Assembly: GCA_028710695.1 (NCBI GenBank)
Contig: JAQTTP010000001.1
Coordinates: forward strand, 206,132-238,131
DNA length: 32,000 bases
Direction of reading: 5' to 3'
From: Candidatus Iainarchaeum sp.
GTDB lineage: Archaea; Iainarchaeota; Iainarchaeia; Iainarchaeales; 0-14-0-20-30-16
The notes beneath the pieces are model-generated. The model searched no databases. It saw only the letters and a program-made list of their open reading frames with translations, and had not been told where the DNA came from. Position 1 is the first letter of the stretch; each line of letters opens with the position of its first letter. The translations under genes were made by a program, and so were the position numbers. Shown here piece by piece: positions 444 through 31,119 of the stretch.

Positions 444-974
444 TCACCTTAAAACCTCTCTTGTTAATGGTCTTCTTGAAACTCCTAATGAGTCCTTAGT
501 TCTTCGTTCTTTTTCTAAAGTTTCTTTACACATTATTCCACGGCCAACCATGTGGTGTACAGTATAATTTCCGTTTAGTTCTATTATTCTTGTGTGTGGG
601 AATAATTGTCTTAAATCTTCCTCAACATTTTTTACGCACCATTCCCTATAATGCCCCCCAACAATAAATTTAGTAGGGGTTATATTGTGCTCTTCAAATT
701 TTCGTTTTATTTCTTCCTTCCAGAGGTATGCAGATAAAGATAAATCAACAGGAATTGCGTCTTTAACTAAATCTCTGAACCATGGAACTTTTTGAATTCC
801 ATAACCATAAACTAATAGAATTTTTCTTTTTTTTGCAAGAGCGATTAATTTTAAAATTAGTTTACTGTGTGAGAGCTTTGCTGTTCTTTCGGATTCTGTA
901 TTTCGCCAAAGATCATCATTGTCTGCAACAAGCGGGGAATGTACTATGAAGATTACTGGGCCAGTATAAGCCAT
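444..974 (-). CDS. Family-A conserved hypothetical alpha/beta protein, paralogue 1 (possible divergent isochorismatase-like cysteine-hydrolase fold)
   Basis: 176-aa ORF. AAGGAG SD 7 nt upstream of the ATG at 974, embedded in the end of the upstream gene (1-nt gap). N-terminus MAYTGPVIFIVHSP. The segment EHNITPTKFIVGGHYREWCVKNVEEDLRQLFPHTRIIELNG resembles the helix-strand-G-x-x-x-x-CV nucleophile-elbow region of isochorismatase-family hydrolases. Basic C-terminal tail. Confidence 0.7.
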   Translation of the reverse strand: MAYTGPVIFIVHSPLVADNDDLWRNTESERTAKLSHSKLILKLIALAKKRKILLVYGYGIQKVPWFRDLVKDAIPVDLSLSAYLWKEEIKRKFEEHNITPTKFIVGGHYREWCVKNVEEDLRQLFPHTRIIELNGNYTVHHMVGRGIMCKETLEKERRTKDSLGVSRRPLTREVLR

Positions 975-975
975 G

Positions 976-1668: not shown

Positions 1669-1721
1669 GTAGATAAAAGGAAAAGAAGGTATTTATTTTT
1701 TGCTATTTTATGTGTGCAAAA

Positions 1722-2306
1722 TTATTTTAATATTTTTCTTGCTAGAACTGCTCTTCTTATTCCTAATTTTTGTCTTTCTTCCGTATGCTTTTTTTTCAAA
1801 TCACAAAAATGGCGGTTAGTTTCAACTTTAGAATAAGAAGAATGCCCCCTGAGCTCAACAATTTGTGATTTTGGAAATAACTTCCTTAATATTTTTTGAA
1901 CTCTTTCCATGCAAATTTCTCTATACCATCCGCCCATAATTATCTTTGATGGCCTTATTTCGTGTTGTTCAATTGCGGATAAAATATTTCTTTCCCATTC
2001 TACGTTCAAATGATTCTCAGGATTAGGCGAAAAGTCCAATGCATACTTCATTTCTTGGAGCTCTGTAATTATTGGTTTGTTGCAAGAACCGATAAGTGTT
2101 TTATGTCTTTGTCCATCTCGAAATTCCCATCTTGAGAATTGATAATAATCTCCAACCCCGAAGATAACTGGAATATTGTATTTATTTGCAAATTCAACAA
2201 GTCGAAACATTCTTTTTTCGTGTTCTAATTCTCCTCTTGTGACTGTTCTAGAAGTGGGGGGTAATGGAGAATGAACAATAAAGATAACCGGGCCAGTATA
2301 GACCAT
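1722..2306 (-). CDS. Family-A conserved hypothetical alpha/beta protein, paralogue 2
   Basis: 194-aa ORF with AAGGAG SD upstream. MVYTGPVIFIVHSP N-terminus, MFRLVEFANKYNIPVIFGVG, EIRPSKIIMGGWYREICMERVQKILRKLFPKSQIVELRG. Basic tail LGIRRAVLARKILK resembles the tail of 444..974. Confidence 0.7.
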   Translation of the reverse strand: MVYTGPVIFIVHSPLPPTSRTVTRGELEHEKRMFRLVEFANKYNIPVIFGVGDYYQFSRWEFRDGQRHKTLIGSCNKPIITELQEMKYALDFSPNPENHLNVEWERNILSAIEQHEIRPSKIIMGGWYREICMERVQKILRKLFPKSQIVELRGHSSYSKVETNRHFCDLKKKHTEERQKLGIRRAVLARKILK

Positions 2307-2316
2307 ATCATTCTCC

Positions 2317-3351
2317 TTACTTTACATATGCAAATACCTGTACTATTTCTCCCCTATACAAATATCCTGAAATTGTAAATCGTGTTGGGATTTCTGGATT
2401 TAGATCATAAGGTACAATAACATCAACATTTTGGTCGTAAGTGTATGTTTGACTATTATAATCAATAGAATTTACAAATATTTTTCCAGATTTTGTTGCT
2501 TTGAAGCTATTATAATCTTGTAAGAATAACCCTACTTTATCATTAGCTTCTGTTGTTGTGATTTTTGTATAATTTATATTGTTGTCTGGAATTATTTCAT
2601 AATTATAGTCTGAAAAATAAGTTTTTACTAAATCTTCTGAAACATTTACATCTGGTGCGTAAATATTTGTTTCTAGGCTTAGATCCAAGATGTCTACATC
2701 TTTTTCATTTGAAAATAAAATTGGCTGCGCGCTGAAGTTGTATACTTCATAAGCAAATATTTGTATTGGGATGCCTTTTTGTAACATTACTTCAAATCTT
2801 GCTGTTATACTGTCATTTTCTAGTGTGCTTGTCTCGGTAATTATTTTTAATTCAGTATATCCCAAGTCATAATCTAAAGTTTTATTTGAATCTTTTGCAA
2901 CCATATGTATTGGATTTGTAAAAGACAGAATTTGTGTTGGGTAAAGCTGATAAGTTTCAAAAGTGTTGTTTAATGATTCTATAAAATTCATGTCATATTC
3001 TTTTTCTTTTAATTTTATATTTGCAACATAAGCAATCTTGCTGTTTTCAGTGTTATAGTTGCTAGAAATAATGTATTTTACTAAGCTTAAATCTCTTATG
3101 CTATTGTCTAATTTTGTTATATCAAGTTCGTTTGTGTCTGCAATTATTAGTATTTCGTCAGATCTTTCTTTTATAATTCCGTTTAGATCCGCATAATATG
3201 CCTCTTTTATGTCTGGCTCTTTATAATCAACCGTGGGTAAAGCATCGCTGTCCTCTTTGTCTCCCCAACCAATAAAAGAAACACCAATTACTGATGCAAG
3301 CATAATAACAATAACAAAAATACTCAAAATCTGTGCAGTAGTTACTTTCAT
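2317..3351 (-). CDS. N-terminally membrane-anchored protein with a large extracytoplasmic domain, unknown function
   Basis: 344-aa ORF. One N-terminal hydrophobic helix (AQILSIFVIVIMLASVIGVSFIGW), then an N/D/Y/I-rich, probably beta-rich domain. 10-nt gap to the downstream family-A gene on the same strand. Confidence 0.6.
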   Translation of the reverse strand: MKVTTAQILSIFVIVIMLASVIGVSFIGWGDKEDSDALPTVDYKEPDIKEAYYADLNGIIKERSDEILIIADTNELDITKLDNSIRDLSLVKYIISSNYNTENSKIAYVANIKLKEKEYDMNFIESLNNTFETYQLYPTQILSFTNPIHMVAKDSNKTLDYDLGYTELKIITETSTLENDSITARFEVMLQKGIPIQIFAYEVYNFSAQPILFSNEKDVDILDLSLETNIYAPDVNVSEDLVKTYFSDYNYEIIPDNNINYTKITTTEANDKVGLFLQDYNSFKATKSGKIFVNSIDYNSQTYTYDQNVDVIVPYDLNPEIPTRFTISGYLYRGEIVQVFAYVK

Positions 3352-8662: not shown

Positions 8663-9784
8663 ATGCTAGTGAATTATGCAGAAGTGAGGGAAAAACATTT
8701 GCTTCCCTTTACTGCAAAATTAAAACAAGTTTATGCCAAACCCCAAAAAACAGTAATAATTGCCCATAATGACTCTGATGGGATTACTTCTGCAATCATA
8801 TTCTCAAAGATTCTTGACAGCTTTGGGCTTAAATATAAGAAAGACTATTCTGTTTATTTTGGTGATAATGAGCTTAGAAAAGCAGAGCTTCCTGAGACTC
8901 ATGAGTTAATAAAAGAAATAAAAAGCTCAGCAGTAGTGATTTATCTTGATTATAGAACCGTCCACGCCCAGAATACTGGAAAAAAAGTTTTTATAGTTGA
9001 TCATCATAATAAGTCTAATCTTACTGGTTATAAAGATGCCACTTGGTACTATCCCTTAAATGGAGAAATTTATAGGCCATCTGCTTCTGCATTTTGTTAT
9101 GATATCTACAAAGAACTTCTTGGACAAAACCACGATGTGAAGCTAATGGCGACTATTGGGGCAGTTGGAGACTCTATGTTGCCTAATTCTTTGGATTATT
9201 TGGATATAAAAGAATTGGAACAGCCATTCTTTGTTGGTCGCCAAATATCTTGGTACTTTTTTAATGCTCAACGAATCTTTTGTTTGGCTGGAGACAATAA
9301 ATCTTGTTTAGAAATTTATAATCTGTTGCTTGAAAAACTAGAAAATAAAACCCTTAATGATTTGACTGCCTTGCCAGAATCAATAGAATCAAGAATCTAC
9401 AAACAGCTAAGAAAAGATAACGATGTAGTTTCAAGATTTAAGGGGCGTTTAGAAACTTATGAAGATTTAAAAGTAATGTTTTTGGAAATGACTCCTGCAG
9501 AAGCAGGATCTAAAGATGCAATATTTGGATATGTTTGGTTATATTATCCTGGTTATTTGTGTGTTATTCATATAAATTTTAAAGGTATTGCAAGCCTATC
9601 TATGCGATCTAATACTTATGATATTCTTGATGTATTTGAAAAGGTTCAGAACAAACTTCCGGAATTAAACTTTGGAGGACATCCTTTTGCTGCGGGCGGA
9701 AAGATAGAAAACTCAAAAGTTCCTTTGCTAAAAGATTTAATAATTGCTGAGTTAAAGACTGGAAAAATCAAATCTATAAATTAA
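8663..9784 (+). CDS. DHH/DHHA1-family phosphoesterase (NrnA/RecJ-like)
   Basis: Motifs in order: IIAHNDSDGITSA (DxD), VIYLDY, FIVDHHNK (DHH), GGHPFAAGG (DHHA1 GGGH-type motif). Confidence 0.75.
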   Translation: MLVNYAEVREKHLLPFTAKLKQVYAKPQKTVIIAHNDSDGITSAIIFSKILDSFGLKYKKDYSVYFGDNELRKAELPETHELIKEIKSSAVVIYLDYRTVHAQNTGKKVFIVDHHNKSNLTGYKDATWYYPLNGEIYRPSASAFCYDIYKELLGQNHDVKLMATIGAVGDSMLPNSLDYLDIKELEQPFFVGRQISWYFFNAQRIFCLAGDNKSCLEIYNLLLEKLENKTLNDLTALPESIESRIYKQLRKDNDVVSRFKGRLETYEDLKVMFLEMTPAEAGSKDAIFGYVWLYYPGYLCVIHINFKGIASLSMRSNTYDILDVFEKVQNKLPELNFGGHPFAAGGKIENSKVPLLKDLIIAELKTGKIKSIN

Positions 9785-9801
9785 AGTGATTTGTGATTTT
9801 T

Positions 9802-10242: not shown

Positions 10243-13200
10243 ATGGCCAAGTATTTGTATATTTTATTTTTTTGTATTCTTTTTGCAGGAATAGCTTTCT
10301 CTTTCCCTGCAGACTCAGATTTCTGCTTTTGTAAAGACAACAAGTTTGTTACTGGAGCGGATGCTCTAAAAGGAATCACCTGCCAAACAGAGAAGATGAT
10401 GTACACCTTCTTTGCAGAGACTTTATCCTGCTTTACAGGTGAGAAGCCAAAGAAACCAGGCCAAGAAGAGTTTCCTCTAAAAGATGAGTTCCCTTCTAAT
10501 GATATTGTTGATGTGCCCCCCTGTAAAAAAAATAATGATGGTATGAAAAAAGATGGGGATTGGAATGGTATTGATAATGTTGATTCTAATATAAACACAA
10601 AAACTAATGATGATACAAGAGTTTGTAAGATAGAGTATGATAAAGCAAAAATAATTTATGGAAAGAACGATAAGCACATAGAAATACGAGACCAAGACAA
10701 TGGCAAAACAAAGTTCTATGATGTAGATGGTATCCCCCAATCAATAGGGACTTGGGGCGATGACTACAAGCCATGTTTAGCTAAATGTAATGCATCAGTA
10801 CCTGGATTTAAAACAATAAACACAGATTTATTGCATTCAGCAAGCTGTCAAGATGCAAGTGGAAATCCAAAACAAGTTAGAATTGATGACCTAACTTATT
10901 TTTTCCCAGTTACTTCAGAATGTGACTCTTCTTATGGAAATAACTCGGGAGTACATTATGATAAAATATGTGTTTTTACTGGGGAAGATACAACAGACTA
11001 TGTTGGTAAACAATATTCTACTGCAGGAAATAGTTATTTGCTTTTTAGATACTCTGTTTGGGACCAGCTAAAACCATTAATACAATCACTTCAATGTAGT
11101 AGAGGTTGTACTCAAAAGTATTTAATACCTGATTCAAATTATCCAAATAATATAATGCAGAACCAATTGGATTGTACAGGTTCAAGTGCTTTAAATTCAA
11201 GTTCTGCAAACATGTTAAACTCATATAGTGGCCCTTTTGGAAATTTTGATACTTTGTCTGATAGTGGTGGATTAAACCCAGAGGCCTTTGTATTGTTACC
11301 GGACTATCCTTCCAATCCAAATATGAGGCCTTGTAAAATCGGGACTGGCTTAAAAACAAAGGAACTTTGTAAAAGCACTAGCTCTAATAATGTATATTGG
11401 AAGCTTGGAGATATTGGAATTTTCCCATATATAGATGGATCTGATAAACACAAGATAAAAGATAAAAATGGGAATCTGGTTGCAGATGAAGTTCCAAAGC
11501 AAACAATAATTAATGCAATTCCTGATATCCTTAATGGAAAGTCTTTAGATAGCATTTTTGGTGGTGTAGATGCTAGCAACGACGAATTTGAAGTATTGAA
11601 TGACACAAAATGTTCTGGGGTAAATGACTTAAAAGGTAAATCTTTTTATGAAATGTTAAAATGTACTGGCTCGACTTCTGGGTGGGGGCGGGTAGAAGAA
11701 CTAGACGATGTTAAAAAACTTACAACAACTGATGTAAGCAATGTTTGTTATAAATATATTTCAGATATTGATCCTAGGCCCGATGTAGCAAGTAATGTAG
11801 ATAAAATGATATTTATAAATCCATCTTTTGATATTGTGCAATATTGCCCTGAAACATCAGGCAATAATTGTATTAGTGAAGAACGCTGTTATCTTGTAAA
11901 GCCCTCAGGCTCAGGAACTGTGGCAGGTGGAGAAAGTTATGGTTCTTTTATATCTTTTAATGCACCCTATAGTAACGAAAACTTAATTGTAATAATAAAA
12001 GATCAAACTCCTCAGGAAGGAGACAAGTTATGTGATACTGATCTGGTGGTTGGAGACTTTTGTAAAACTGGAACAAGTAGAGGGAAAAAACTGGCATATG
12101 GTTCAGTTAAAGAGCATGATCCTTCAGTACCTAATTCAAAAGCAGGAGAATATACTATTAGACAAAAAGGAAACCCAATAGCAATAAATGTTTCTTATGC
12201 AACGATGATTAATAAACTTACCCCAAATGGAACTAATGATTTGGAAAACTTATTTTGTGGTCAGGATGGCCCAGGAAAAGATGCCTCAGGCATGTGTGAT
12301 TATTCTTACTCAGGTTCTGGAACAGCAGCAGGCGGAGATGAGTGGAAATCAGATCCACAATATGGTGATATTGTAAAATATGGCCTACACACAAAAGATG
12401 GTTATCCTGGAGAAACTTTTGTGATAGTAATTAATGGTGTTCCAGATGGTTTGCCAGAAATAGGTAAAGGAAAAACTAAGAACGGAGAATATAGTAGGGA
12501 AAAAAATTCAAAGACAGTTTATCTAAAAATTGCAGATAGGATAATAGCACCCAATGGTAAGGATACATATGAAATTTTTGATCCTAACGGCAACCTGACT
12601 GCAAAGAATGTTCCTAAGAAGACAATTTTAGATTTGATTCCAGATCTTGTTAGTGGAAAAGATCCTGCAGATGTTTTTTGTGATGCTGCACATCCTGCAG
12701 ATTCAACCACAGGGGTTTGTGATTATGGTGCTCCAGTAGTGGAACAACCAAGAGTAGCCCCTGGTTTGCAATCCCAGCCTTATAATCCAGATACTGATGA
12801 AGAAATGGGTGTGTGTAATCTTTGGAGTGGGGTTGATTCAGATATGCCTAAAGAAGGCCCCGGGTCCAAATTTTATGTTTGTGAAGACAAAATAAGGTCT
12901 AAAGAATTATTTTATGAGATCTCTGATTTGGATGTGTATGAAAAAATTGGGCCTATATCTGGAAGACAAGATATAGTAGAAAATGGTGGGCTTGTATATT
13001 TCAAAAAAACATTCCAAAAAAACGTGAATGCAGATCCATACCTTTATTGTGTTAACAAAACTTTAACAAATGGAGTTTGGTATTTGTATAAATATACTCC
13101 AGATTGTTCTAAGGCAAGTACATTGTCTACTTGTGCATCAGACCCTGCTTTGTGTTCTGCAGGGGATTCTGGCGTAGCGGAAGATAACTTTACAAAGGCA

Positions 13201-14127
13201 AGAAAGATGATATCTGATGCAGGATTTGATCCAGAAATATTGCCAAATAATTATACAAAAAAAGATACAGTTGTAATTGAGGGTAACACAATCCAAGCAA
13301 CTCTTACACAAACAGTGGCCTCACCTAATGGCAGAGGAACTCTAATTCTAGGAGATAATTCTGACAAAATTGTTTGTTATGCAGTAACCAAAGGCCCTGG
13401 AGATCCAAAAGGTACAATCAATCCTTGTCCTGTGAATGGGGATGTTATAAAAGGAATGAATGGAAAAGGGATGGGCGTTAAAGTTAAATTAAAAAAATTA
13501 GTGAAAAATGGGAATGGAAGTGTAGATTCTACGTATAAATTAGGAATTATTTCTAATACTGAGCATACAGAACTAAAAGACATAAAACCACTTAGCTTTG
13601 CCCCCTGTAATGATTCTTGTACGGCAGATCCTGCTGATACAAGTGGAGATGTAGCTGAAAGTACAGTCCAACCATTAGCACCTTATAATGCTGCTTTGGG
13701 CGGATTACAGTGGGATACAGTTGTTTCTGGAAATGATACAGAAGATTATTTTGCAGTGACATATTTAGTGTATTGTGATTCTAAAACACAATATACCCTT
13801 GGCGGAGGGACAATGACTCAAAATGTTGCTTGTAGAATAGGCACTGGAAAGAAAGGGTCTGTAGTTAATATAACTGAAACCAAAAATTTTACTTGTAATG
13901 GTGATGCCTATGGTACCATTGGAATTTATGATGGAACCAATTATGCAATAAATGATTTTGTATGTAATTGTGGTGCTGGGCTTTGTTATCCAAACTTGTC
14001 TGTGAACTCACAAGGGTCTAAACAAATTATGCCTCCTAACAAAACTACCTTAACTAACTTAGGTTACAATATGTCTGGTATGATTGCGAATAGTGCTTTG
14101 TCTATAGCAATTACAAAAACGTCATAA
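10243..14127 (+). CDS. Giant secreted Cys-rich surface protein with internal repeats (putative S-layer/adhesin-like)
   Basis: 1294-aa ORF. N-terminal signal-like MAKYLYILFFCILFAGIAFSFPADS. Many Cys, N-x-S/T sequons and G/D/N/T-rich composition. Internal repeats VYWKLGD...KDKNGNLVADEVPKQTIINAIPDILNGKSLDSIFGG vs VYLKIAD...FDPNGNLTAKNVPKKTILDLIPDLVSGKDPADVFCD, and SGSGTVAGGESYG vs SGSGTAAGGDEWK. Confidence 0.75.
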   Translation: MAKYLYILFFCILFAGIAFSFPADSDFCFCKDNKFVTGADALKGITCQTEKMMYTFFAETLSCFTGEKPKKPGQEEFPLKDEFPSNDIVDVPPCKKNNDGMKKDGDWNGIDNVDSNINTKTNDDTRVCKIEYDKAKIIYGKNDKHIEIRDQDNGKTKFYDVDGIPQSIGTWGDDYKPCLAKCNASVPGFKTINTDLLHSASCQDASGNPKQVRIDDLTYFFPVTSECDSSYGNNSGVHYDKICVFTGEDTTDYVGKQYSTAGNSYLLFRYSVWDQLKPLIQSLQCSRGCTQKYLIPDSNYPNNIMQNQLDCTGSSALNSSSANMLNSYSGPFGNFDTLSDSGGLNPEAFVLLPDYPSNPNMRPCKIGTGLKTKELCKSTSSNNVYWKLGDIGIFPYIDGSDKHKIKDKNGNLVADEVPKQTIINAIPDILNGKSLDSIFGGVDASNDEFEVLNDTKCSGVNDLKGKSFYEMLKCTGSTSGWGRVEELDDVKKLTTTDVSNVCYKYISDIDPRPDVASNVDKMIFINPSFDIVQYCPETSGNNCISEERCYLVKPSGSGTVAGGESYGSFISFNAPYSNENLIVIIKDQTPQEGDKLCDTDLVVGDFCKTGTSRGKKLAYGSVKEHDPSVPNSKAGEYTIRQKGNPIAINVSYATMINKLTPNGTNDLENLFCGQDGPGKDASGMCDYSYSGSGTAAGGDEWKSDPQYGDIVKYGLHTKDGYPGETFVIVINGVPDGLPEIGKGKTKNGEYSREKNSKTVYLKIADRIIAPNGKDTYEIFDPNGNLTAKNVPKKTILDLIPDLVSGKDPADVFCDAAHPADSTTGVCDYGAPVVEQPRVAPGLQSQPYNPDTDEEMGVCNLWSGVDSDMPKEGPGSKFYVCEDKIRSKELFYEISDLDVYEKIGPISGRQDIVENGGLVYFKKTFQKNVNADPYLYCVNKTLTNGVWYLYKYTPDCSKASTLSTCASDPALCSAGDSGVAEDNFTKARKMISDAGFDPEILPNNYTKKDTVVIEGNTIQATLTQTVASPNGRGTLILGDNSDKIVCYAVTKGPGDPKGTINPCPVNGDVIKGMNGKGMGVKVKLKKLVKNGNGSVDSTYKLGIISNTEHTELKDIKPLSFAPCNDSCTADPADTSGDVAESTVQPLAPYNAALGGLQWDTVVSGNDTEDYFAVTYLVYCDSKTQYTLGGGTMTQNVACRIGTGKKGSVVNITETKNFTCNGDAYGTIGIYDGTNYAINDFVCNCGAGLCYPNLSVNSQGSKQIMPPNKTTLTNLGYNMSGMIANSALSIAITKTS

Positions 14128-14219: not shown

Positions 14220-14882
14220 ATGAATAAAAAATTCCACGAGGAAATGTTTGAACAGGAATTTAATTCTAATTCTTATTTGCAAAAATATCTGAAGAAAAAA
14301 GGCCTGGAGTTTGTAAAGCTTCTGGGCGAAGGAAGAAGTGCATGGATTATTGTTGTAAGTCACACAGCACATAAGAAGAACACGAAACCACAATTGCCTA
14401 CTCGCCTTCTTACAATTAAATTGGAGAAGAAAAGAAGTACAAGATCTGAAATGGTAGAAAAGGAAACAAAATATATGAACCTTGCAAACAAATCAAAAAT
14501 TGGTCCGAAGTTTGTTGATTCTAATATTAATGGCAGGTTTATTGTTTATGAATACTTTGATGCTATTTCGCTAATAAATTATTTAGATGAATTTGATAAA
14601 AAAGAATTTGTGGTTTTTTTGAAAGCTTTGTTTGCACAAGGGAAAAAATTAGATAAAATTGGATTGGATCATGGCCAGCTTGTAGGAAAAGGGACTAATA
14701 TTATGGTTCTAAAAAGTGGAAAACCAATAATTGTGGATTTTGAAAAATCATCTAATAATAGAAAAACACATAATGTAAATGTTTTAATTTCATATTTTTT
14801 CTCAGAAAAATCACAGGTGGCAGATAAAGTAGAAAAAATTTTAGGAAAAGATTTTGAAAAAATAAAAAAAGAATTTTTATAA
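14220..14882 (+). CDS. Small RIO/Bud32-like protein kinase-fold protein (archaeal predicted Ser/Thr kinase type)
   Basis: G-loop-like LLGEGRSAWI, VAIK-like LLTIKLEKK, catalytic-loop-like GLDHGQLVGKGTNIMV, DFG-like IVDFEKSS. 220 aa. Confidence 0.55.
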   Translation: MNKKFHEEMFEQEFNSNSYLQKYLKKKGLEFVKLLGEGRSAWIIVVSHTAHKKNTKPQLPTRLLTIKLEKKRSTRSEMVEKETKYMNLANKSKIGPKFVDSNINGRFIVYEYFDAISLINYLDEFDKKEFVVFLKALFAQGKKLDKIGLDHGQLVGKGTNIMVLKSGKPIIVDFEKSSNNRKTHNVNVLISYFFSEKSQVADKVEKILGKDFEKIKKEFL

Positions 14883-15374
14883 CTCTTTTCTTGCAACTTC
14901 TTGGAATACAACTTCTAGATCGTCGCCAACAATCCCAAGTAGAAGGCTTGTTTTTAATCCAAGAGACATTCTTACTGCTCTAGTTAGTTCTGTAGAATTT
15001 ATTTTCTGCTTTTCTTTTATTACCCACACAACGTATTTTGAGTGGCTCTTGTCGGGACTTTTTCCTTTTGGGTAAACTCTGAAATCAAACCCGAATTTTA
15101 GACCTGTTTTTACAATATAACCAAGAGATCTTAGATTTTTAAATACTGCAAAATTATCTAAAATTTCTTTTTTTGATTTTTTTACTATGCTTTCAAAAGT
15201 CTCTTTTTTTGATAGTTTTAGAGTTCCGCGTTCTAAAAAATAAAGGGTTTCATAAATATCTAAAAAGAATGAGTTTCCTACTTTTTCTCCGTAAAACTTG
15301 CTAATAAGCCAAGATTTAGAATCATTCTCGGTTACAAGGGTTTTATTATTTACAAAAGTTCCTTTTAAATCCAT
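14877..15374 (-). CDS. endA: tRNA-splicing endonuclease, short (homotetramer-type) subunit
   Basis: FKNLRSLGYIVKTGLKFGFDFRVYPKG...HSKYVVWV is the catalytic Y...H...K-region signature of EndA. Start moved to the ATG at 15374 (MDLKGTF...), because the track start at 15455 overlaps the upstream gene by 47 nt. About 165 aa. Confidence 0.85.
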   Translation of the reverse strand: MDLKGTFVNNKTLVTENDSKSWLISKFYGEKVGNSFFLDIYETLYFLERGTLKLSKKETFESIVKKSKKEILDNFAVFKNLRSLGYIVKTGLKFGFDFRVYPKGKSPDKSHSKYVVWVIKEKQKINSTELTRAVRMSLGLKTSLLLGIVGDDLEVVFQEVARKEL

Positions 15375-15408
15375 ATATAATACGGAACTAGTATAATTAA
15401 ATAGTTTT

Positions 15409-16152
15409 TTATTGTCTTGGCCTTGAACCTGGCGCAAGCCGTCCTTCTCCAGCAAGGTTAACTCCAGTTATTTTAAAAACATACATTTGTGCAATGTTTT
15501 TGGACATTCTTTTATTCATAAGGTTTAATTCAAGTTCCTTTGCAAAAAAATATCTGTGTGCATGTAAAGATTTTTGAAAAGCAGTAGGATTTCTTAGTCC
15601 AACATAGAACTCTCCCACATTTTCAGCAATAATTTTTGCAAATGAGTTCATTCGTGAGCTACTAAAAAGTTTAAAAAAATCCGGCTCTGCTTTTGATAAA
15701 CATATTGCTAAGCCCTTTATAAATTGAGGAGACTCGAAGACTGGATTTGAGAAATTTGCATTATATAACCAATCTTTTAATAGGCCTGGGCTTACTGACT
15801 CAGCTTCTCCTTTAACAATGCTATCAATCATTTTTTGGTGTTCTTTTCTGAGAGATTCAAGATCAAAAATTACTTTGTCTGATGTCCTTCGTTCATCTAG
15901 GGCGGGCGGAAACCTTGATATAACAGACCCATCATATTGTCCTCTGTCATTGTAAACATCCTGTATATGTTCAACACCGTCAGATGTGTGCAATCGTGTT
16001 CGTCTTTCTAGAATTTGTCTGCCAAGTTCAATTATAATTCTTCTTTTTTCTAATCTGCCATCTGCAGAAAAATGATCAGTTAGGGTGCCTCTATAACCGC
16101 CTTCACGATTGTGCACCAATCTTTCTACAAATGGTTCTCTTACTTTTGGCAT
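15409..16152 (-). CDS. Hypothetical Arg-rich protein lying between truD and endA
   Basis: 247-aa ORF, same strand, with short gaps to truD (30 nt) and endA (34 nt). I recognise no catalytic motif. N-terminus MPKVREPFVERLVHNRE weakly resembles the N-termini of the 28.5-30.9 kb operon proteins. Confidence 0.55.
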   Translation of the reverse strand: MPKVREPFVERLVHNREGGYRGTLTDHFSADGRLEKRRIIIELGRQILERRTRLHTSDGVEHIQDVYNDRGQYDGSVISRFPPALDERRTSDKVIFDLESLRKEHQKMIDSIVKGEAESVSPGLLKDWLYNANFSNPVFESPQFIKGLAICLSKAEPDFFKLFSSSRMNSFAKIIAENVGEFYVGLRNPTAFQKSLHAHRYFFAKELELNLMNKRMSKNIAQMYVFKITGVNLAGEGRLAPGSRPRQ

Positions 16153-17403: not shown

Positions 17404-17512
17404 AGTATTGTTCTTACCCCAAATGCTTTATATTCTATATGCTAATGGGCTGGAGTCTGCCTACTAATACTAAAGATTGCTTTTTATATCTTATAGCTGT
17501 TATTTTTACATT

Positions 17513-18160
17513 ATGGGGAACTTATATACCTCCTTTGCGCAATTTGAAAAAGCATATGAGAATGAAGTGAAGAAAATAAAATCCAAAGAGAAGAGTGCCC
17601 TAATTTTCTACTTTAAAAAAGGGGGGCTTGTGAAAACCAAGTACACACCCCAATTAAGAGTTACTTACCCTAGCAAACAAAAAGTTAAAGAAGAACTTGC
17701 TAATTTGTCTGCACGAAGAGCAGAAACAATGATTAAGCTCAAAGAATGGGGCAAAATAAAATACGATGCAGATAATTATCTTAAGAAAACAAAAAGAAAA
17801 AGATTTTTTGATTCTTTATATTGGAAACATAAAATGAAGTCCTTTACTGATAAAGATTATAGAGAAGAGATAAAAAAATTAAAAATCCCAATGGATTTAA
17901 TGGCAGATCCAAAGCTAAAAAAGATCTTACATGCATTTATGACAAACCAAACATATAGAGATAATATAATTGACACTGTTGAAAATTCAGTAGTTTATAG
18001 AGATAAAGGATTTGGAGAACAAATTTTGCAGGCAATAGAAATAAAACAAGGAATTGCGGAAAGAAAGATAACTTTATTTTCTGAAGTTTTACAAGGAATT
18101 GATAATCTAATTCTTGGATACAAGGTTGTAAATAGGTGGGTAAGTGTTAACAAAGATTGA
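17513..18160 (+). CDS. Hypothetical Lys-rich protein
   Basis: ORF with the ATG at 17513 (MGNLYTSF...) preferred, since a TTTTTATATC TATA-like box lies about 25-30 nt upstream. Its 3' end overlaps the helicase start by 17 nt. No recognisable motif. Confidence 0.5.
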   Translation: MGNLYTSFAQFEKAYENEVKKIKSKEKSALIFYFKKGGLVKTKYTPQLRVTYPSKQKVKEELANLSARRAETMIKLKEWGKIKYDADNYLKKTKRKRFFDSLYWKHKMKSFTDKDYREEIKKLKIPMDLMADPKLKKILHAFMTNQTYRDNIIDTVENSVVYRDKGFGEQILQAIEIKQGIAERKITLFSEVLQGIDNLILGYKVVNRWVSVNKD

Positions 18161-22714: not shown

Positions 22715-24343
22715 ATGGCAGAAATGCAGAATCAGCAAAATGCGTTCTTAGAAGAGGGTGCAAAGAGAATTAGAGGAAAAGATGCTCAAAGAATTAATAT
22801 TTTGGTTGCAAGGGCAGTAGCTAATGCAGTTAGATCTACTTTGGGCCCTAAAGGAATGGACAAAATGATAGTTGACGAAATGGGGGATGTGACAATCTCA
22901 AATGATGGTGCGACTATTCTGAAGGAAATCTCTATAGAACACCCTGTTGGAAAGATGATGGTTGACATTGCAAAAACCCAGGATTCTGAAATTGGAGATG
23001 GAACAACTACTGCTGTAGTAGTAGCTGGAGAACTTCTTGCTGAAGCTGAAAAGCTATTAGATAATGGAATACATCCTTCAAGTATAATTAATGGTTATAG
23101 GTTGGCAACAACAAAAGCATTAGAGTTTTATAACGCAATATCATATAAAATTGGTCCTAAAGATTCTAAGAAATTATATAATATTGCAGTGACTTCCATG
23201 ACTGGGAAGGCAGCAGAATCTAGTTCTAAGTTGGCACAATTGGTTGTAGATGCAGTGTCACAAATTGCTATTGAAGATGACAAGAAAATTGTTTTAGATA
23301 ATGATTATATAAAAGTGGAAAAGAAGGAAGGAGCAAGCCTAGATCATAGTGAATTGATTAGAGGAATCGTAATTGATAAAGAAATTGTGAGCAATAATAT
23401 GCCAAAGAAAATTTCAAATGCAAAAATACTTCTTTTAGATGTGGCTTTGGAAATAAAAAGCCCAGAAACAGACACAAAAATACAGATTACTAGCCCAGAC
23501 CAATTACAACAGTTTTTAGATCAGGAAGAAAGAATGATACAAGATATGGTAGACAAAATAATAGCAACAGGTGCAAATGTGGTAATTTGTCAAAAAGGTA
23601 TTGATGATTTGGCTCAACATTTCTTGGCAGAATCTGGAATTATGGCAATAAGAAGAGTAAAGAAATCAGATATTGATAAATTAGCAAAAGCAACTGGTGC
23701 AAAAGTTGCATCAAGATTGAAAGAAATAAACAAGAATTATTTAGGAAATGCAGAAACAGTTAGAGAAACAAAAATCTCTGGCGAAGAAATGATTTTTGTT
23801 GAAGGCTGTAAAGATCCTAAAGCAGTTACAATACTAATAAGGGGCGGAACTCAGCATGTTGTTGATGAAGCAGAAAGAGCAGTAGTTGATGCTTTGGGTT
23901 CAGTATCATCAGCAATAAAATCAGGTAAATATGTTGCTGGTGGTGGTGCCTGCGAAATCGAAGTTGCAATGAGATTAAGGGATTATGCTAAGGACGTTGG
24001 TGGAAGAGAGCAGTTGGCAATAGAAGGATTTGCTACTGCATTAGAAATAATACCAAGAACTTTGGCAGAATCTGCAGGATTAAACCCATTAGATATATTG
24101 GTTGCTTTGAAGAACAAGCACAAAAAGAATGAAATCGCTTATGGTGTGGATGTACTAAATGCAACAATATCAGATATGGAAAAGTTGAATGTTATCGAGC
24201 CTACAGAAATAAAGATCCAAGCAATTAATTCAGGGTCAGAAGTATCACAAATGATTTTAAGAATCGACGACATAATTGCTGGAAGCGGAAGATCTAAAGG
24301 CGGAATGCATAACATGCCACCAGGAATGGGAGATGCAGATTAA
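22715..24343 (+). CDS. ths: Thermosome subunit (group II chaperonin)
   Basis: [18 protein letters not shown]-like ([11 protein letters not shown]), [30 protein letters not shown], and a C-terminal Met/Gly-rich tail [23 protein letters not shown] upstream. 542 aa. Confidence 0.95.
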
Positions 24344-24415: not shown

Positions 24416-24931
24416 ATGAAAAGCATAAATTTTGTAATAGTAGTATTATTAGCATTGCTAATTTTGCCAATGGGGTTTTCCTACGTTAAATTTACTAGTA
24501 GCTCATATCATCCCGGAGAACTACAAGTAGATGGTACAAAGGCACCAGGCTATTGGGATGTTACAGCAACATTTAGCGAAAACAAATATAGTGTACCTTA
24601 CGCAACATTTAGTGGATACTTATTAAAACTTGGAGCAACAATAAATAAGCCAGTTGATGTTGAAGGTGTAAGTACAAATTGTAAAATAAATCTAAAAGAA
24701 ATGACTAATAAAAAAGATTCTTACACAAGCACAGCTTTATTCCAAATAAATAGTGCTTTGCCAGAAAGAGCAGGTAATGTATTTTATAGTCGTGGAGCTT
24801 ATTCAATGATTTCTCCAACTGGAAATTACATGACTCCTACATATGTTAAAGGTATGTGTAACACTATGTTTTTGTACTTTGGAAACAACTTAGTATTCCC
24901 TGGTACTGCAATGATAATGGACGTTAAGTAA
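24416..24931 (+). CDS. Small secreted protein, unknown function
   Basis: 171 aa. N-terminal signal-like MKSINFVIVVLLALLILPMGFS. GGAGGTG SD 8 nt upstream. Confidence 0.6.
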   Translation: MKSINFVIVVLLALLILPMGFSYVKFTSSSYHPGELQVDGTKAPGYWDVTATFSENKYSVPYATFSGYLLKLGATINKPVDVEGVSTNCKINLKEMTNKKDSYTSTALFQINSALPERAGNVFYSRGAYSMISPTGNYMTPTYVKGMCNTMFLYFGNNLVFPGTAMIMDVK

Positions 24932-27291: not shown

Positions 27292-27451
27292 TGGGGTCAC
27301 AGGGACTCGAACCCTGGTCCGCAGGTTTCTTCCATATCATCCTAAGATGCTTCCCTGCAATTATCATCATCGCCAATTTTTACAAATTAGCTCCGCCTTC
27401 ACGCTCTTTATTGTCTGGAGCCTGAAGTGCTAGCCGCTACACTATGACCCC
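27292..27451 (-). tRNA. tRNA-Trp (anticodon CCA) interrupted by an intron of about 88 nt
   Basis: Minus-strand cloverleaf: acceptor GGGGTCA/TGACCCC, D arm GTGT-AGCGGCTA-GCAC, anticodon stem TCAGG/CCTGC (one T:C at 27:43), loop CTCCAGA, T arm CAGGG-TTCGAGT-CCCTG, discriminator A, no encoded CCA. The two halves are separated by extra sequence inserted at or near the canonical 37/38 position. Confidence 0.85.
27327..27414 (-). other. tRNA-Trp intron (boundaries +/-1 nt, inferred from the cloverleaf only)
   Basis: This sequence between anticodon-loop position 37/38 and the 3' anticodon-stem strand must be removed to give a 72-nt tRNA. It contains ATGATGA (27364-27370) and ATGATAT (27334-27340), 30 nt apart. 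I could not trace a clean bulge-helix-bulge by eye. Confidence 0.6.
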
Positions 27452-27494: not shown

Positions 27495-27941
27495 TTACTT
27501 TCTTGGGGAAAAACCCCAAATCTCGTCGCCAACGTAATGTAAGTTCTTTACTACTTTTCCCTTATCCATGCCTTTAATCTCTGTAGAGCTATATATTGCA
27601 AACCCTAAGGCCAGATTTTGTTTGTGTTCTGCATCGGCAATGAAAACCACAGAATCTTTTTGAAACTCTTCTGTAGAGATTATTCCTGGGCGCATTAAAT
27701 CTGCGCCTTTTACCACAAAAGGTATTGCTCCTTTGTCTACATAAACATGTGGGAAAGTCAGAGTTGTATTTTTTAGAGTGGGATATATCTGTCCATCATG
27801 CTCAAAAAGTATTGGTGTTCCATTTTGTAAGAATAAGTTTTCTGCTTTTTGAACTCTATCTTTTATATCAAATGAAATGTTATATTTAGAAATCTTTTCA
27901 TTTAGTTCCTTTATTTCTTTTTTGCTTAAAGTTTGTAGCAT
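27495..27941 (-). CDS. PUA-domain RNA-binding protein (archaeal MCT-1/Tma20-like)
   Basis: 148 aa. C-terminal half VYVDKGAIPFVVKGADLMRPGI...VVFIADAEHKQNLALGFA matches the PUA-domain pattern. Confidence 0.7.
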   Translation of the reverse strand: MLQTLSKKEIKELNEKISKYNISFDIKDRVQKAENLFLQNGTPILFEHDGQIYPTLKNTTLTFPHVYVDKGAIPFVVKGADLMRPGIISTEEFQKDSVVFIADAEHKQNLALGFAIYSSTEIKGMDKGKVVKNLHYVGDEIWGFSPRK

Positions 27942-28001: not shown

Positions 28002-28469
28002 ATGTACGAAAAAAAATACTTACTGATGGCTATTAATGAGGCGAAAAAAGGGGTAAAGAAAAAACATGGCGGACCTTTTGGGGCTGTGCTTCTTGTAGAT
28101 GGAAAAATCTTCAAAGCCCACAATATGGTTCTAACAGATCACGACCCAACAAGGCATGCAGAGATAAGAGTTATCTCTAAAGCCTGTAAAAAATTAAAAA
28201 AAGAAAAACTTAAGAATGCAGTTTTATATTCTTCAACAGAGCCATGTCCTATGTGCCTATCCGCAATCCATTGGGCAGGGATAGATACAGTTTATTATTC
28301 AACAGAAATAGAAGATGCCGATAAAGCAGGATTTGATGAAATTAATTTGCATGCGGATAAAATCATTAAGCTTGCAAAACTAAAAATGAAAGTTATTGGC
28401 GGCTTAGAAAGAAAAAAAGGACTGGAAGCATTTGAATTATTAAAGAAAACAAAACTAAAAAGATATTAA
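28002..28469 (+). CDS. CDA-fold zinc deaminase (guanine deaminase GuaD / TadA-like)
   Basis: HAEIRVI (H-A-E zinc/catalytic motif) and LYSSTEPCPMCLSAIHWAGIDTVYYS (PC-x-x-C). 155 aa, the size and pattern of GuaD-type nucleobase deaminases. Confidence 0.75.
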   Translation: MYEKKYLLMAINEAKKGVKKKHGGPFGAVLLVDGKIFKAHNMVLTDHDPTRHAEIRVISKACKKLKKEKLKNAVLYSSTEPCPMCLSAIHWAGIDTVYYSTEIEDADKAGFDEINLHADKIIKLAKLKMKVIGGLERKKGLEAFELLKKTKLKRY

Positions 28470-29248
28470 ATTCCAAGGATTTCTTTTACTCTTGATTTTG
28501 TAAGATCTAATTCATAAGGATAAAATCCATCAGTTCCTTCTTTGAAATATCTCTCAATTAATGAAAGATAGTTTTTTGCATAGGCTCTGCCTACTACTCT
28601 ATTTAGAAGAATTTTTTTTCCACGTAATAATGCTGATTTGTTTCTTAATATGAACTCTGCCAGCAAAAATTCAGCAGGATGCATGCCCAACTCTTTTCTG
28701 AATTTGTTTGCTTCATTTGTTTCTGTTTTATAATCATAAAGCCCATCTCTGAATAATGTAGGTCTATGTAAATATCCGGGTTTAGTTCTTAATCTTTGTA
28801 TTACGTCAATTCTAATACAATCATCAAAATATCCGTTACCACTAAAAAAACCTAAAACAAATCTGGGGGCTCCAATAGAATCTTTTAAAACATAGTGCTG
28901 GTGTTTGACAATTGCTGCTCCAAGTCTGTTTCTTACTTCTTCTTCGTCGTATGCATCTCCATATCTCCATTCGCTTGCAAAATCTATGGAATAAACATCT
29001 GTTCTTTTTTTTGCTTCGTGGAAAGGAATAGATTTTCTTTCATCTATTTTGGACGCCGTTTTTTGTCTAAATCTTCTATCTTTGATTCTTCTTGCACTTT
29101 CCATAAGCTTGTAAATAATGTCCTGGCTCGCACCTTGTTTTACTGCCTTTTCAACAAGTTCTTTTAATCTAGTATCAACTGGATTTCTTTGTTCTCTGTT
29201 CATAATACTATGAAAATGTCTTTCGGGGCTATAAGGTCTTTTTGGCAT
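28466..29248 (-). CDS. Family-B protein, intact paralogue (B1): basic N-terminus + helix-GAS-helix (RHH-like) module + unknown, possibly GNAT-like, C-terminal domain
   Basis: ATG at 29248 (MPKRPYSPERH...) preferred, with a GGGGGT SD-like box upstream. Alignable along its whole length with the two ORFs 29792..30022 + 29229..29753. Conserved blocks VD-x-RLK-x-L-x-E-x-A-x-x-QGAS, ESA-x-RIKD-x-RF, IQR-x-RTKP, ELGM-x-P-x-EFLLAEFI-x-RN, LRG, NY-x-x-L-x-x-RYF. Confidence 0.7.
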   Translation of the reverse strand: MPKRPYSPERHFHSIMNREQRNPVDTRLKELVEKAVKQGASQDIIYKLMESARRIKDRRFRQKTASKIDERKSIPFHEAKKRTDVYSIDFASEWRYGDAYDEEEVRNRLGAAIVKHQHYVLKDSIGAPRFVLGFFSGNGYFDDCIRIDVIQRLRTKPGYLHRPTLFRDGLYDYKTETNEANKFRKELGMHPAEFLLAEFILRNKSALLRGKKILLNRVVGRAYAKNYLSLIERYFKEGTDGFYPYELDLTKSRVKEILGI

Positions 29249-29753
29249 TGTTTGTACCCCCGCTTCCAATAATTTCTTGTACTTTCTTTTTGTTTAAATC
29301 AAGAGTATATTTGCCTATGTTGAGTAACCCTTTTTTTGGTATAAAATATCTATCTAATAGTGGCGGATAATTCTTTTGGCCATAACCCCCAAACATCATG
29401 AAATCCATGATTACTTCTCCTCCACGCAAGATAAATTCTCTATTTCTAAATATAAATTCTGCTAGCAAAAACTCAGATGGATACATACCTAATTCTTGTT
29501 TAAATCTGTCAGATTCCACTTTTTCTTTTTCTGGATTCCATGCATATCCATGTTCATCTCTTGTGTATGCTGGTTTTGTTCGTTCTCTTTGTATAGAATG
29601 TATTACTATCTTTTTTCTGCTTACCTCATCATAGCAGAGGGTAAACCTTGCGGCTCTATTTCCATCTCTCAGTACTAAATGTTTATAACCAACTAGGCCA
29701 GGAACTATTGCATTTGTGTGCACATCTAAGAATTTGTCTGCATAGCCCCACAT
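29229..29753 (-). CDS. Family-B paralogue B2, C-terminal fragment ORF (in the -1 frame relative to 29792..30022)
   Basis: 174-aa ORF homologous to the C-terminal two-thirds of B1 (IHSIQRERTKPAY, QELGMYPSEFLLAEFIFRN, LRGG, KNYPPLLDRYF). Its reading frame stays open upstream of its ATG, through the A8 tract, and that upstream stretch also aligns to B1. Confidence 0.65.
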   Translation of the reverse strand: MWGYADKFLDVHTNAIVPGLVGYKHLVLRDGNRAARFTLCYDEVSRKKIVIHSIQRERTKPAYTRDEHGYAWNPEKEKVESDRFKQELGMYPSEFLLAEFIFRNREFILRGGEVIMDFMMFGGYGQKNYPPLLDRYFIPKKGLLNIGKYTLDLNKKKVQEIIGSGGTNNAKKTL

Positions 29754-29791: not shown

Positions 29792-30022
29792 TTACATCTT
29801 GGAAAGAAAGAGTTTTTTTTCTGGGCCTTTTGCTCTTGGGGCGTGAAATCTATTATCTTTTATTCTAATTGCTGATTCTAGTAAAGAATGCATTAATTCT
29901 CTGCTGGCCCCTTGTTCTTTTGCACGTTCTAAAAGTGATTTTAATCGTAAATCAACAGAATTAGTTTGTTTTCTTTTTAAAACACTTTCAAGATGTCTTT
30001 CTGGCTTGTAAGGCTTAGGCAT
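29792..30022 (-). CDS. Family-B paralogue B2, N-terminal fragment ORF (RHH-like module only)
   Basis: ATG at 30022 (MPKPYKPERHLESVLKRKQTNSVDLRLKSLLERAKEQGASRELMHSLLESAIRIKDNRF...), with a GAGGT SD 8 nt upstream. Terminates 7 codons after the A8 tract. Confidence 0.65.
   Translation of the reverse strand: MPKPYKPERHLESVLKRKQTNSVDLRLKSLLERAKEQGASRELMHSLLESAIRIKDNRFHAPRAKGPEKKLFLSKM
29813..29820 (-). other. A8 homopolymer (T8 on the + strand) = frameshift point joining the two B2 ORFs; A_AAA_AAA slippery heptamer in the zero frame
   Basis: Zero frame reads GGC CCA GAA AAA AAA CTC ... TAA. A -1 slip, or one extra A, gives GPEKK|TLSFQDVKAKTGTYDFYEVPMWGYAD. This aligns residue-for-residue with B1 ...DERKSIPFHEAKKRTDVYSIDFASEWRYGD. 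Confidence 0.7.
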
Positions 30023-30032: not shown

Positions 30033-30914
30033 CTACTGCCTGCCGTTTCCATTTTTTTTCATTTCTGCTTTATGAATATACATCTTTTTTTCTGCAGCAG
30101 ATTTAAGATCATCAAGATATTGATCTATTTGTTCTATTTTTTCAGGAGTTAGGCCGCTATATTGTAGAACATTTTTAATTGCTATTGGACAAGGCTTTGC
30201 CCCAATATTAAATCCAGATGCAAATTCTAAATCTGGAACATCCATCTTTAAACTGCGGGAAACATTTTCTTTTTGTTCTAGCCAAATTTGCTTAGCAATA
30301 TTATATAACTCGTTGACTAATTCTGTAGTGATTTTATAATAATCATAACCTCTTGCTCTTGGACAACTAACAAGCATTTCAAATTCGTCTCCGCCAGTTC
30401 TTCCCATCGTGAATTTTGTGTCTGAACCTTCATGTTTTCTTGCAAGTTCGGTTGCTGCTAAACCCATAACACTTAGATAGGTGTTTCCTAAACCATGCCC
30501 AAATTCGTCGTTTATTTTTTTCAAATTATTCATATCAATATATACATATGAAAAAACCCTGTCTGGATTTGTAACATAATGTCTTGCCCTAAGTTTAAAT
30601 CCTCTTTTATTTAATAATCCTGTTCCTTCATCTCTTTCTGAAAAACTTACTAATCTATGGAGATGCCTTATTCTCATTGTTTCGTATCTTTGTTTTAAAG
30701 TTTCAACGAAATTTCTGCTTGCTTTATCTCTTCTTGCTTGTAATAAAAGTTCTGGGTAATTGTTAGTAATAGTTTCAATCCTTTGGGCAGCACCCATTGG
30801 CGTATTTGAGGGATTAGCTCTTCGATCTAATTGCTCCGGAACTTCGTGTTCAGTTCTAGTAATTCTTCTTTCATGATGTCTTAAATTACGATTAGGTTGT
30901 CTTACTTTCCCCAT
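30033..30914 (-). CDS. Stand-alone GGDEF-domain protein (diguanylate-cyclase-type nucleotide cyclase) with a basic/helical N-terminal module
   Basis: 293 aa. RDEGTGLLNKRGF, VYIDMNNLKKINDEFGHGLGNTYL, MGRTGGDEFEMLV and ASGFNIGA occur in the canonical GGDEF-domain order and spacing. No TM segment. N-terminal PELLLQARRDKASRNFVETLKQ aligns with the helix-GAS-helix module of B1/B2. Confidence 0.8.
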   Translation of the reverse strand: MGKVRQPNRNLRHHERRITRTEHEVPEQLDRRANPSNTPMGAAQRIETITNNYPELLLQARRDKASRNFVETLKQRYETMRIRHLHRLVSFSERDEGTGLLNKRGFKLRARHYVTNPDRVFSYVYIDMNNLKKINDEFGHGLGNTYLSVMGLAATELARKHEGSDTKFTMGRTGGDEFEMLVSCPRARGYDYYKITTELVNELYNIAKQIWLEQKENVSRSLKMDVPDLEFASGFNIGAKPCPIAIKNVLQYSGLTPEKIEQIDQYLDDLKSAAEKKMYIHKAEMKKNGNGRQ

Positions 30915-30936: not shown

Positions 30937-30944
30937 TATAAAAA
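30937..30944 (-). promoter_or_regulatory. TATA-box-like element for the GGDEF operon
   Basis: Minus-strand CTTTTTATACC has its TATA core 23-30 nt upstream of the ATG at 30914, with no SD between. This suggests a leaderless first gene, while the downstream genes carry SD-like boxes. Confidence 0.3.
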
Positions 30945-31047
30945 GATTTCTATGATATAAAATGTATTAATTGAATATCCCAAACCCACTGGTTTGTGGA
31001 TCTGGTCTGTTTTTGGCAGACCGTGCCTTTTTTCCAAAAAGGCTGGC

Positions 31048-31119
31048 GCGGCTGTGATGTAACGGTTAGCATAATGGCCTTCCAAGCCGTTCGTCCGGGT
31101 TCGAATCCCGGCGGCCGCA
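31048..31119 (+). tRNA. tRNA-Gly (anticodon UCC)
   Basis: 72-nt cloverleaf: acceptor GCGGCTG/CGGCCGC (one T:G), D arm ATGT-AACGGTTA-GCAT, anticodon stem ATGGC/GCCGT, loop CTTCCAA, variable TCGT, T arm CCGGG-TTCGAAT-CCCGG, discriminator A, no encoded CCA. Confidence 0.9.

Follow-up and report, generated by a model that had tools for sequence, protein, structure and literature searches.

The window analyzed here is a stretch of 32,000 nucleotides from Candidatus Iainarchaeum sp. (contig JAQTTP010000001.1, positions 206,132 to 238,131), and the subject of this report is an open reading frame (ORF) near its right end that encodes a 293 amino acid protein with a GGDEF domain, a domain of bacterial diguanylate cyclases. 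The gene is flanked by a divergent tRNA-Gly gene on one side and, on the other, by copies of a gene that we refer to as the partner, followed by a dCMP/cytidine deaminase gene, a PUA protein gene and a thermosome gene. The identical protein is present in NCBI as MDD4983470.1, annotated as 'MAG: GGDEF domain-containing protein [Candidatus ainarchaeum sp.]' (MAG, metagenome-assembled genome), and the domain call is therefore already public. We find that the gene is native to the archaeal contig, where it occupies a fixed chromosomal site, that its GGDEF domain looks catalytically competent by its conserved residues, and that it diverges far faster than the genes around it. The features discussed are collected in Table 1.

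Searches with domain profiles agreed on the identity of the protein. The Pfam GGDEF profile (PF00990) matched the ORF with an E value of 1.4e-12 and 48.1 bits, compared with a gathering score of 23.8, and the NCBIfam model TIGR00254 matched with 43.3 bits, above its cut-off of 37.4; by these scores the match is far beyond chance. Every NCBIfam equivalog model scored far under its own cut-off, and the PHROGs matched were all generic families that contain GGDEF and have no assigned function. When PDB sequences were searched by profile, 43 GGDEF chains were recovered. An earlier reading of this DNA, made without database searches (the sequence-only reading), had assigned the ORF to the GGDEF family on the basis of four motifs. 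Its coordinates were right, and all four motifs lie at the residues it gave, namely RDEGTGLLNKRGF at residues 94-106, VYIDMNNLKKINDEFGHGLGN at 124-144, MGRTGGDEFEMLV at 170-182 and ASGFNIGA at 232-239; the assignment is borne out by the profile match and by the predicted palm fold described below.

The PF00990 alignment covered only profile positions 3-93 of 161, corresponding to residues 94-187. The second half of the domain escapes the Pfam profile because of an extra long helix (residues 192-222) and an insertion at about residues 239-256, both of which lie outside the Pfam model. That half is nonetheless present, since G234, A274 and K282 fall in near-invariant columns of an alignment with bacterial GGDEF proteins, and the AlphaFold2 model treats residues 94-289 as a single domain. 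The model, which was built on an alignment of the family with bacterial sequences, had a mean predicted local distance difference test score (pLDDT) of 85.9 and a predicted template modeling score (pTM) of 0.77. When it was compared with the PDB by Foldseek, all 50 of the top 50 matches were GGDEF proteins, with target template modeling (TM) scores of up to 0.75; they included SadC, PleD, WspR, DgcB, SiaD, DgcR, DgcZ and a GGDEF protein of T. maritima. Upstream of the catalytic domain the model places two long helices (residues 39-62 and 67-93) that form a putative dimerization or regulatory stalk entering the domain, preceded by a basic segment in which disorder was predicted for residues 1-26. 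The sequence-only reading saw neither a transmembrane helix nor a PAS, GAF or REC sensor in the N terminus, and neither was found: no transmembrane helix was detected in the protein, and the N terminus had no Pfam match of any kind. A search of 1.84 billion representative sequences with residues 1-95 returned no homologue beyond the family, the one other hit being a spurious repeat protein.

Residue conservation was read from an alignment of the family with 25 bacterial GGDEF proteins. D95, T98, D127, K132, N135, D136, H140, G143, R172 and the G174-G175-D176-E177-F178 signature were invariant, the signature throughout the family and its 30 aligned relatives. From the motif alignment, we take D127, K132, N135, N144, D176, K282 and K286 to be the counterparts of the functional residues defined in PleD. 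In the PleD numbering these are Asp327, Lys332, Asn335, Asp344, the acidic residue 370, Lys442 and Arg446 (PMC6629876). The mapping agrees with the fixed offset of 44 residues between the cross-dimer and Watson-Crick positions in GacA and an Idiomarina enzyme (PMC6456294). The archaeal protein keeps five of the seven; it has a lysine (K286), also seen there in several of the aligned bacterial relatives, in place of Arg446 and an asparagine (N144) in place of Asp344. The signature supplies a magnesium-binding aspartate and a general-base glutamate, the latter, E177, being the residue named as the cross-dimer general base (PMC6456294). At the cross-dimer cation position, R300 in PleD, the archaeal protein has K103. 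Position 144 is the base-specificity position at the Watson-Crick face, which is a serine in the Hypr GGDEFs (PMC6456294, PMC6629876). Among 119 relatives this column was aspartate in 115 and asparagine in four, so that asparagine is rare. An RxxD I-site, expected five residues before the signature and carried by 105 of 120 relatives, was missing from every family member, in which D-x-K/R-F is found instead. The I-site is typical of GGDEF cyclases but is not obligatory. The domain therefore appears to be whole, and by its residues it looks catalytically competent. The sequence-only reading called it motif-complete, which holds for the four motifs and the intact GGDEF turn but not for the full canonical set, the guanine-reading aspartate being an asparagine.

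The surroundings of the gene are archaeal, as the sequence-only reading had recognized. Genes for EndA, TruD, a thermosome, an SMC-like ATPase and a Hel308-type helicase that has the archaeal domain 4 lie in the window, and an intron-containing tRNA was also confirmed. The GC content stays near 0.33 throughout the window and is 0.335 in the GGDEF ORF. The same gene order was shared by 11 independently assembled contigs drawn from ENA, JGI and GTDB MAGs of different projects: a ZIP transporter, tRNA-Gly, the GGDEF gene, an optional partner, the convergent dCMP/cytidine deaminase and the PUA protein, followed by the thermosome where the contig reaches far enough. The tRNA-Gly sequence itself was seen in loci L002 and L003. 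Archaeal promoter geometry is well established, and on that basis the TTTTTATA box upstream of the gene can be read as an archaeal-type TATA box, its distance from the ATG implying a leaderless mRNA. A scan for sigma-70 promoters showed no enrichment. A stem-loop of 9 bp with a T-run between the GGDEF promoter region and the tRNA-Gly gene was the sole terminator-like site in 28.3-31.2 kb and did not exceed the expectation from shuffled sequence.

Table 1. Positions, within the window, of the GGDEF gene, its parts and the neighboring features
Feature	Positions	Strand	Remarks
GGDEF protein ORF, 293 aa + stop	30033..30914	-	NCBI MDD4983470.1
Residues 1-35, basic N-terminal segment, predicted disordered	30810..30914	-	family-conserved motifs NLRHxERR and LDRRxxPxNTPMGxAQ
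Residues 39-93, two long helices, putative stalk	30636..30800	-	AlphaFold2 model
Residues 94-289, GGDEF (palm) catalytic domain	30048..30635	-	Pfam, alignment, AlphaFold2, PDB/Foldseek
G174-G175-D176-E177-F178 signature	30381..30395	-	invariant in family and 30 aligned relatives
N144 codon, Watson-Crick-face base-specificity position	30483..30485	-	PleD D344; Asn in type A, Asp in type B
TTTTTATA box	30937..30944	-	centered 26-27 nt upstream of ATG; invariant in 5 of 5 aligned loci, including the most distant
Stem-loop, 9 bp, with T-run	31003-31032	+	
tRNA-Gly(TCC)	31048..31119	+	divergent from GGDEF gene; upstream neighbor wherever that flank is present
Partner copy 1, N-terminal part, 76 aa	29792..30022	-	ends at stop from -1 frameshift
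A8 homopolymer, frameshift site of copy 1	29813..29820	-	one more A restores frame of the intact L038 orthologue
Partner copy 1, C-terminal part, 174-aa ORF	29229..29753	-	
Partner copy 2, intact paralogue, 260 aa	28466..29248	-	orphan DPANN family
dCMP/cytidine deaminase	28002-28469		
PUA protein	27495-27941		
Intron-containing tRNA	27292-27451	-	Rfam: 160 nt across a 71-nt model, hence a long intron; missed by ARAGORN in default mode
Thermosome	22715-24343		
EndA	14877-15455		
DHH/DHHA1 phosphoesterase, 373 aa	8663-9784	+	20 kb from GGDEF gene

The GGDEF protein is far more divergent between loci than its neighbors. Compared with L001 and L004, the protein of the window is 44-45% identical, while the flanking proteins share 78-93% identity (deaminase 90-91%, ZIP transporter 93%, PUA protein 78-87%, thermosome 85%). 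DNA identity is 75-85% in the flanks and 45-60% in the GGDEF ORF, rising to 76% in the segment encoding the catalytic core. Nonsynonymous divergence (dN, Nei-Gojobori) was 0.50 for the GGDEF gene and 0.05-0.09 for the flanks. The ratio of dN to synonymous divergence (dS) was roughly 0.3, although dS is saturated (0.8-2.2, and undefined for two pairs), so that only relative dN is informative. The L004 and L043 genes are nearly identical, with one codon difference. This ratio and the identity of the core DNA show purifying selection on the catalytic core; the protein is thus constrained yet is evolving 6-10 times faster than its neighbors.

Two allelic types can be distinguished by residue 144. 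Type A, with asparagine, comprises the genes of the window, L002 and L038, and type B, with aspartate, those of L001, L003, L004, L043, L047, L048, L049 and L050. A truncated copy in L044 (protein P0009) joins type A by similarity of its N terminus and ends before residue 144. The types are out of step with the flanking genes, since loci whose deaminase is about 90% identical to that of the window carry either a type A or a type B gene. L038, for example, with a deaminase identity of about 90%, has a type A gene 63% identical to that of the window, whereas the type B counterparts are 43-45% identical; in L002 the deaminase shares only 42% identity with that of the window across its 57 available residues, although the type A gene there is 58% identical. 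Types A and B are old and do not track the relationships of the flanking genes. Relations among the flanking genes are mosaic as well: the thermosome of L003 is 94% identical to that of L004 and 85% to that of the window, and in the deaminase and PUA protein the window groups with L004 (91% and 87%), those of L003 being distant (71% and 63%). Such a pattern would be expected if related lineages had recombined or if hidden paralogs were being compared.

Immediately downstream of the GGDEF stop codon, three ORFs in the same direction make up two copies of the partner gene, the first split in two at a run of eight A residues and the second intact. An intact orthologue of copy 1 follows the GGDEF gene in L038 (653-1423). 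The frameshift in the window may reflect a mistake in sequencing or assembly, a recent pseudogene or a phase variation prone to slippage. The partner varies between the other loci. L003 (6916-7671) and L049 likewise have a full copy behind the GGDEF gene, a remnant of 79 amino acids is present in L004, L043 and L047, the gene is gone from L001, L002 and L048, and L050 yielded no partner ORF; in some loci the family is multi-copy. Among 5.8 billion proteins the family had 12 members, present only on archaeal metagenomic contigs (for example L039 and L041). Distant homologues were found near FtsZ and MscS genes on other archaeal contigs that have no GGDEF gene nearby. Because copies vary between loci and these distant homologues stand without a GGDEF gene, the link of the partner to the cyclase is facultative.

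The motifs WxYxD, SIQRERT, LGxHPxEFLLxEF and KKRVxEILG are conserved in the partner family. None of the 12 members had a Pfam match at E values up to 5, and no NCBIfam, PADLOC or meaningful PHROG match was obtained. The partner model had a pLDDT of 80, and all 50 of its top 50 Foldseek matches were GNAT acetyltransferases; these matches were non-significant (best E value 3e-3, TM scores 0.34-0.40), and the modeled C-terminal fold may be described as weakly GNAT-like. Homology between the N termini of the GGDEF protein and the partner was considered and rejected (BLASTP E values 0.6-8).

The family to which the GGDEF protein belongs is small. A profile search of the 5.8 billion proteins identified seven members (P0001-P0005, P0008 and the truncated P0009), after which the score dropped from 338 bits to the 72 bits of the first bacterial cyclases. 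All members whose flanks could be read lie in the one archaeal neighborhood. The more distant relatives are all bacterial, mainly Clostridia together with some bacteria of the Candidate Phyla Radiation (CPR), and the link between the family and bacteria consists of about 90 alignable residues at 30-38% identity. One of these relatives, P0058, is a GGDEF protein of 169 amino acids that shares TGLLNKRGF and the unusual asparagine, and its neighbors are bacterial and CPR-like (topoisomerase I, Pth, FtsA and signal peptidase). Because the family is isolated, with seven members, and every more distant relative is bacterial, the gene was most probably acquired from bacteria by an ancestor of a narrow group of Iainarchaeota (DPANN). 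Of the origins offered by the sequence-only reading, that of a gene taken from bacteria and domesticated by the archaeon is thus the best supported. Scans of IMG/VR gave two generic GGDEF matches at 32% identity and no member of the GGDEF family, and no match to the partner family; a viral origin is unsupported.

Two partial matches were also noted. On L019, a contig of Micrarchaeia (Norongarragalinales), a GGDEF match runs off the contig end. In L044 the P0009 gene (1607-2014) adjoins the ZIP gene and is type A-like, but ends after residue 135, just past the KKIN motif, and from there on the contig continues with unrelated sequence to its end. Either the copy has been disrupted or the end of the contig is chimeric.

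These data lead us to propose, with somewhat better than even confidence, that the gene encodes a soluble, stand-alone, homodimeric GGDEF cyclase of bacterial ancestry that is now a native, archaeally transcribed gene; its dimerization, activity, product and regulation are what we infer. Two monomers would pair through the N-terminal helical stalk, each taking one purine nucleoside triphosphate (NTP). Magnesium would be held by D127 and D176, with N135 at the sugar face, residue 144 at the Watson-Crick face and K282 and K286 at the phosphates, and E177 of one monomer would deprotonate the 3'-OH of the NTP on the other, yielding a 3',3'-cyclic dinucleotide. Type B, with Asp144, should make cyclic dimeric GMP (c-di-GMP). 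Type A, with Asn144 as in the window, might make c-di-GMP or might have a relaxed purine specificity in which ATP is accepted too. Because the RxxD I-site is absent, feedback inhibition by the product would not be expected. Control could be exerted through transcription or through the family-specific N-terminal segment and the stalk; a protein partner is also possible, as SiaC is for SiaD, and the GNAT-like protein encoded downstream is a candidate.

Several observations weigh against this proposal. Neither ORF profiles nor Rfam revealed an EAL, HD-GYP or PilZ domain or a c-di-GMP riboswitch in the 32-kb window, part of a contig of at least 238 kb, and c-di-GMP has never been detected in any archaeon (PMC10249747). 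Evolution at 6-10 times the rate of the neighbors would be unusual in a housekeeping signaling enzyme. Changes comparable to that at position 144 (D to S) killed activity in four of five canonical enzymes, those with GGEEF, while the fifth, which carries GGDEF, kept its activity (PMC6456294).

A different role for the same enzyme must be considered, in which it is the signal synthase of a conflict or interaction module, in antiviral defense or in the interplay of a DPANN symbiont with its host, and not an enzyme of housekeeping signaling. The cyclic nucleotide would then be an alarm or a manipulation signal, and an arms race would diversify the gene together with the variable GNAT-like gene. 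The sharp confinement of divergence to the GGDEF ORF, in both dN and DNA identity, fits this idea, as do two old allelic types that differ at the base-specificity residue and are out of step with their flanks, a partner that has been gained, duplicated, frameshifted, truncated or lost among close relatives, and the position of the locus next to a tRNA gene. However, PADLOC found no match for the GGDEF or the partner proteins, no recognizable effector (nuclease, pore, TIR, Sir2 or similar) was seen, and IMG/VR contigs contained no family member. The gene also occupies the same site, bounded by housekeeping genes, in all the genomes, with no integrase or repeats noted, its dN/dS lies below 1, and the more distant partner homologues have no GGDEF gene nearby. 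On balance we regard such a module as unlikely, though it is the main alternative. It is interesting to speculate that the allelic types make different dinucleotides, type B c-di-GMP and type A mixed or adenine-containing products, and that with the GNAT-like partner they constitute a signaling or conflict module specific to this archaeal lineage, a reading to which we give a low probability. If true, this would be the first GGDEF-based cyclic-di-purine system in Archaea, with nucleotide specificity under diversifying selection.

The domain might also not be a cyclase at all, acting instead as an NTP-binding or hydrolyzing regulatory domain, like the GGDEF of GdpP/YybT, or as a scaffold, with the change of D344 to N marking a loss of function in type A. 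The asparagine in place of the guanine-reading aspartate in the type found in the window, a second domain half too divergent for Pfam to align and the lack of c-di-GMP turnover enzymes nearby are all compatible with this. However, the metal ligands, the general base, GGDEF, N135 and K282/K286, residues that tend to be lost from degenerate GGDEF domains, are strictly conserved in both types, type B keeps the canonical aspartate, and the model superposes on active cyclases. A domain without cyclase activity consequently appears more improbable still. The remaining concern, that bacterial DNA was mis-assembled or mis-binned into an archaeal contig, had been raised by the sequence-only reading and is in line with the bacterial identity of all the nearest relatives beyond the family and with published warnings of contamination for archaeal GGDEF matches (PMC5847659, PMC10086821). 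Because 11 contigs, assembled independently in different projects, show the same junctions on both sides of the gene, a mis-join is effectively excluded; the GC content matches that of the window, the TATA box is conserved and archaeal with no sigma-70 signal, and the orthologues diverge together with their archaeal flanks. An artefact of this kind can be considered effectively refuted, and a native cyclase is the reading we prefer.

Among known systems, the protein most resembles the bacterial enzymes composed of a coiled coil or stalk and a GGDEF domain, such as the PleD diguanylate cyclase domain, WspR, DgcB of Caulobacter and SiaD of Pseudomonas. With these it shares the palm fold, GGDEF, the metal ligands, the sugar-face asparagine, the phosphate-contacting Lys/Lys(Arg) pair and the N-terminal helical stalk. 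It differs from them in its archaeal host and promoter, in N-terminal 93 residues with no outside homologue, in lacking REC or another sensor and the RxxD I-site, in the asparagine that replaces the guanine-reading aspartate and in the helical elements inserted into the second domain half. The SiaD profile (NF038266) aligned residues 22-219, covering the stalk and part of the domain, with 49.6 bits compared with a cut-off of 290, which indicates architectural likeness only. The Hypr GGDEFs, which make 3',3'-cGAMP (GacA of Geobacter and Bd0367 of Bdellovibrio), likewise combine a specificity residue other than aspartate with GGDEF instead of GGEEF, and like the archaeal protein they have no arginine at the cross-dimer position. 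GGDEF is necessary for activity when the specificity position is serine or threonine (PMC6456294). Hypr enzymes are recognized by serine or threonine at the Watson-Crick face together with GGDEF; the archaeal protein has GGDEF but asparagine at that face, lacks REC and has sister alleles with the canonical aspartate.

GGDEF matches in archaea have been reported before, among them CAJ37382 of Methanocella arvoryzae, a Ca. Micrarchaeum protein with REC and an inactivated GGDEF, and more than 300 BLAST matches (PMC5847659, PMC8646023). Galperin et al. (2018) knew of one archaeal GGDEF domain and questioned matches in MAGs as contamination (PMC5847659), and Römling (2022) wrote that archaeal GGDEF proteins 'need to be confirmed in archaeal contigs' (PMC10086821). 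Braun et al. (2021) listed the more than 300 unverified matches in archaeal MAGs, many of them DPANN and Asgard, and found no c-di-GMP in two model archaea (PMC8646023); according to a 2023 review, c-di-GMP was still undetected in archaea (PMC10249747). The statement of the sequence-only reading that GGDEF is essentially absent from archaea thus reflects the census view (PMC5847659, PMC10249747), but it has to be qualified by the unverified matches (PMC8646023) and by the NCBI annotation itself. Whereas contamination was left open for the earlier matches, residence of the gene described here is backed by synteny and a promoter, and its catalytic residues are intact and not inactivated.

A few further observations were made at these loci. 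The window also encodes a DHH/DHHA1 phosphoesterase, 20 kb away from the GGDEF gene (Table 1); proteins with DHH/DHHA1 domains include RecJ/GAN-like nucleases, nanoRNases and phosphodiesterases of cyclic dinucleotides or pNpN. An ORF of 1294 amino acids at 10243-14127 (+) of the window had no Pfam match at E <= 0.001, and ORFs at 444-3351, 14220-14882, 15409-16152, 17477-18160 and 24416-24931 were also without matches. In L003 a CYTH-domain protein (CyaB/thiamine-triphosphatase superfamily) is encoded at 9257-9787 (+) between the PUA and thermosome genes, a position at which no such gene was seen in the window.

On present evidence this is a known enzyme family in an unexpected host and not a new kind of system. 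Reviews still hold c-di-GMP and its enzymes to be essentially bacterial (PMC5847659, PMC10086821, PMC10249747), and the locus provides the confirmation in archaeal contigs for one lineage: a GGDEF gene, catalytically intact by sequence, that is fixed among housekeeping genes, has an archaeal promoter and recurs in at least 11 independent assemblies. Its product, a small soluble protein of 293 amino acids, offers a concrete entry to asking whether archaea make c-di-GMP or a related dinucleotide, and the natural Asp/Asn pair at the base-reading position is a ready-made specificity experiment. The fast divergence, confined to this gene, hints at a role beyond routine signaling.

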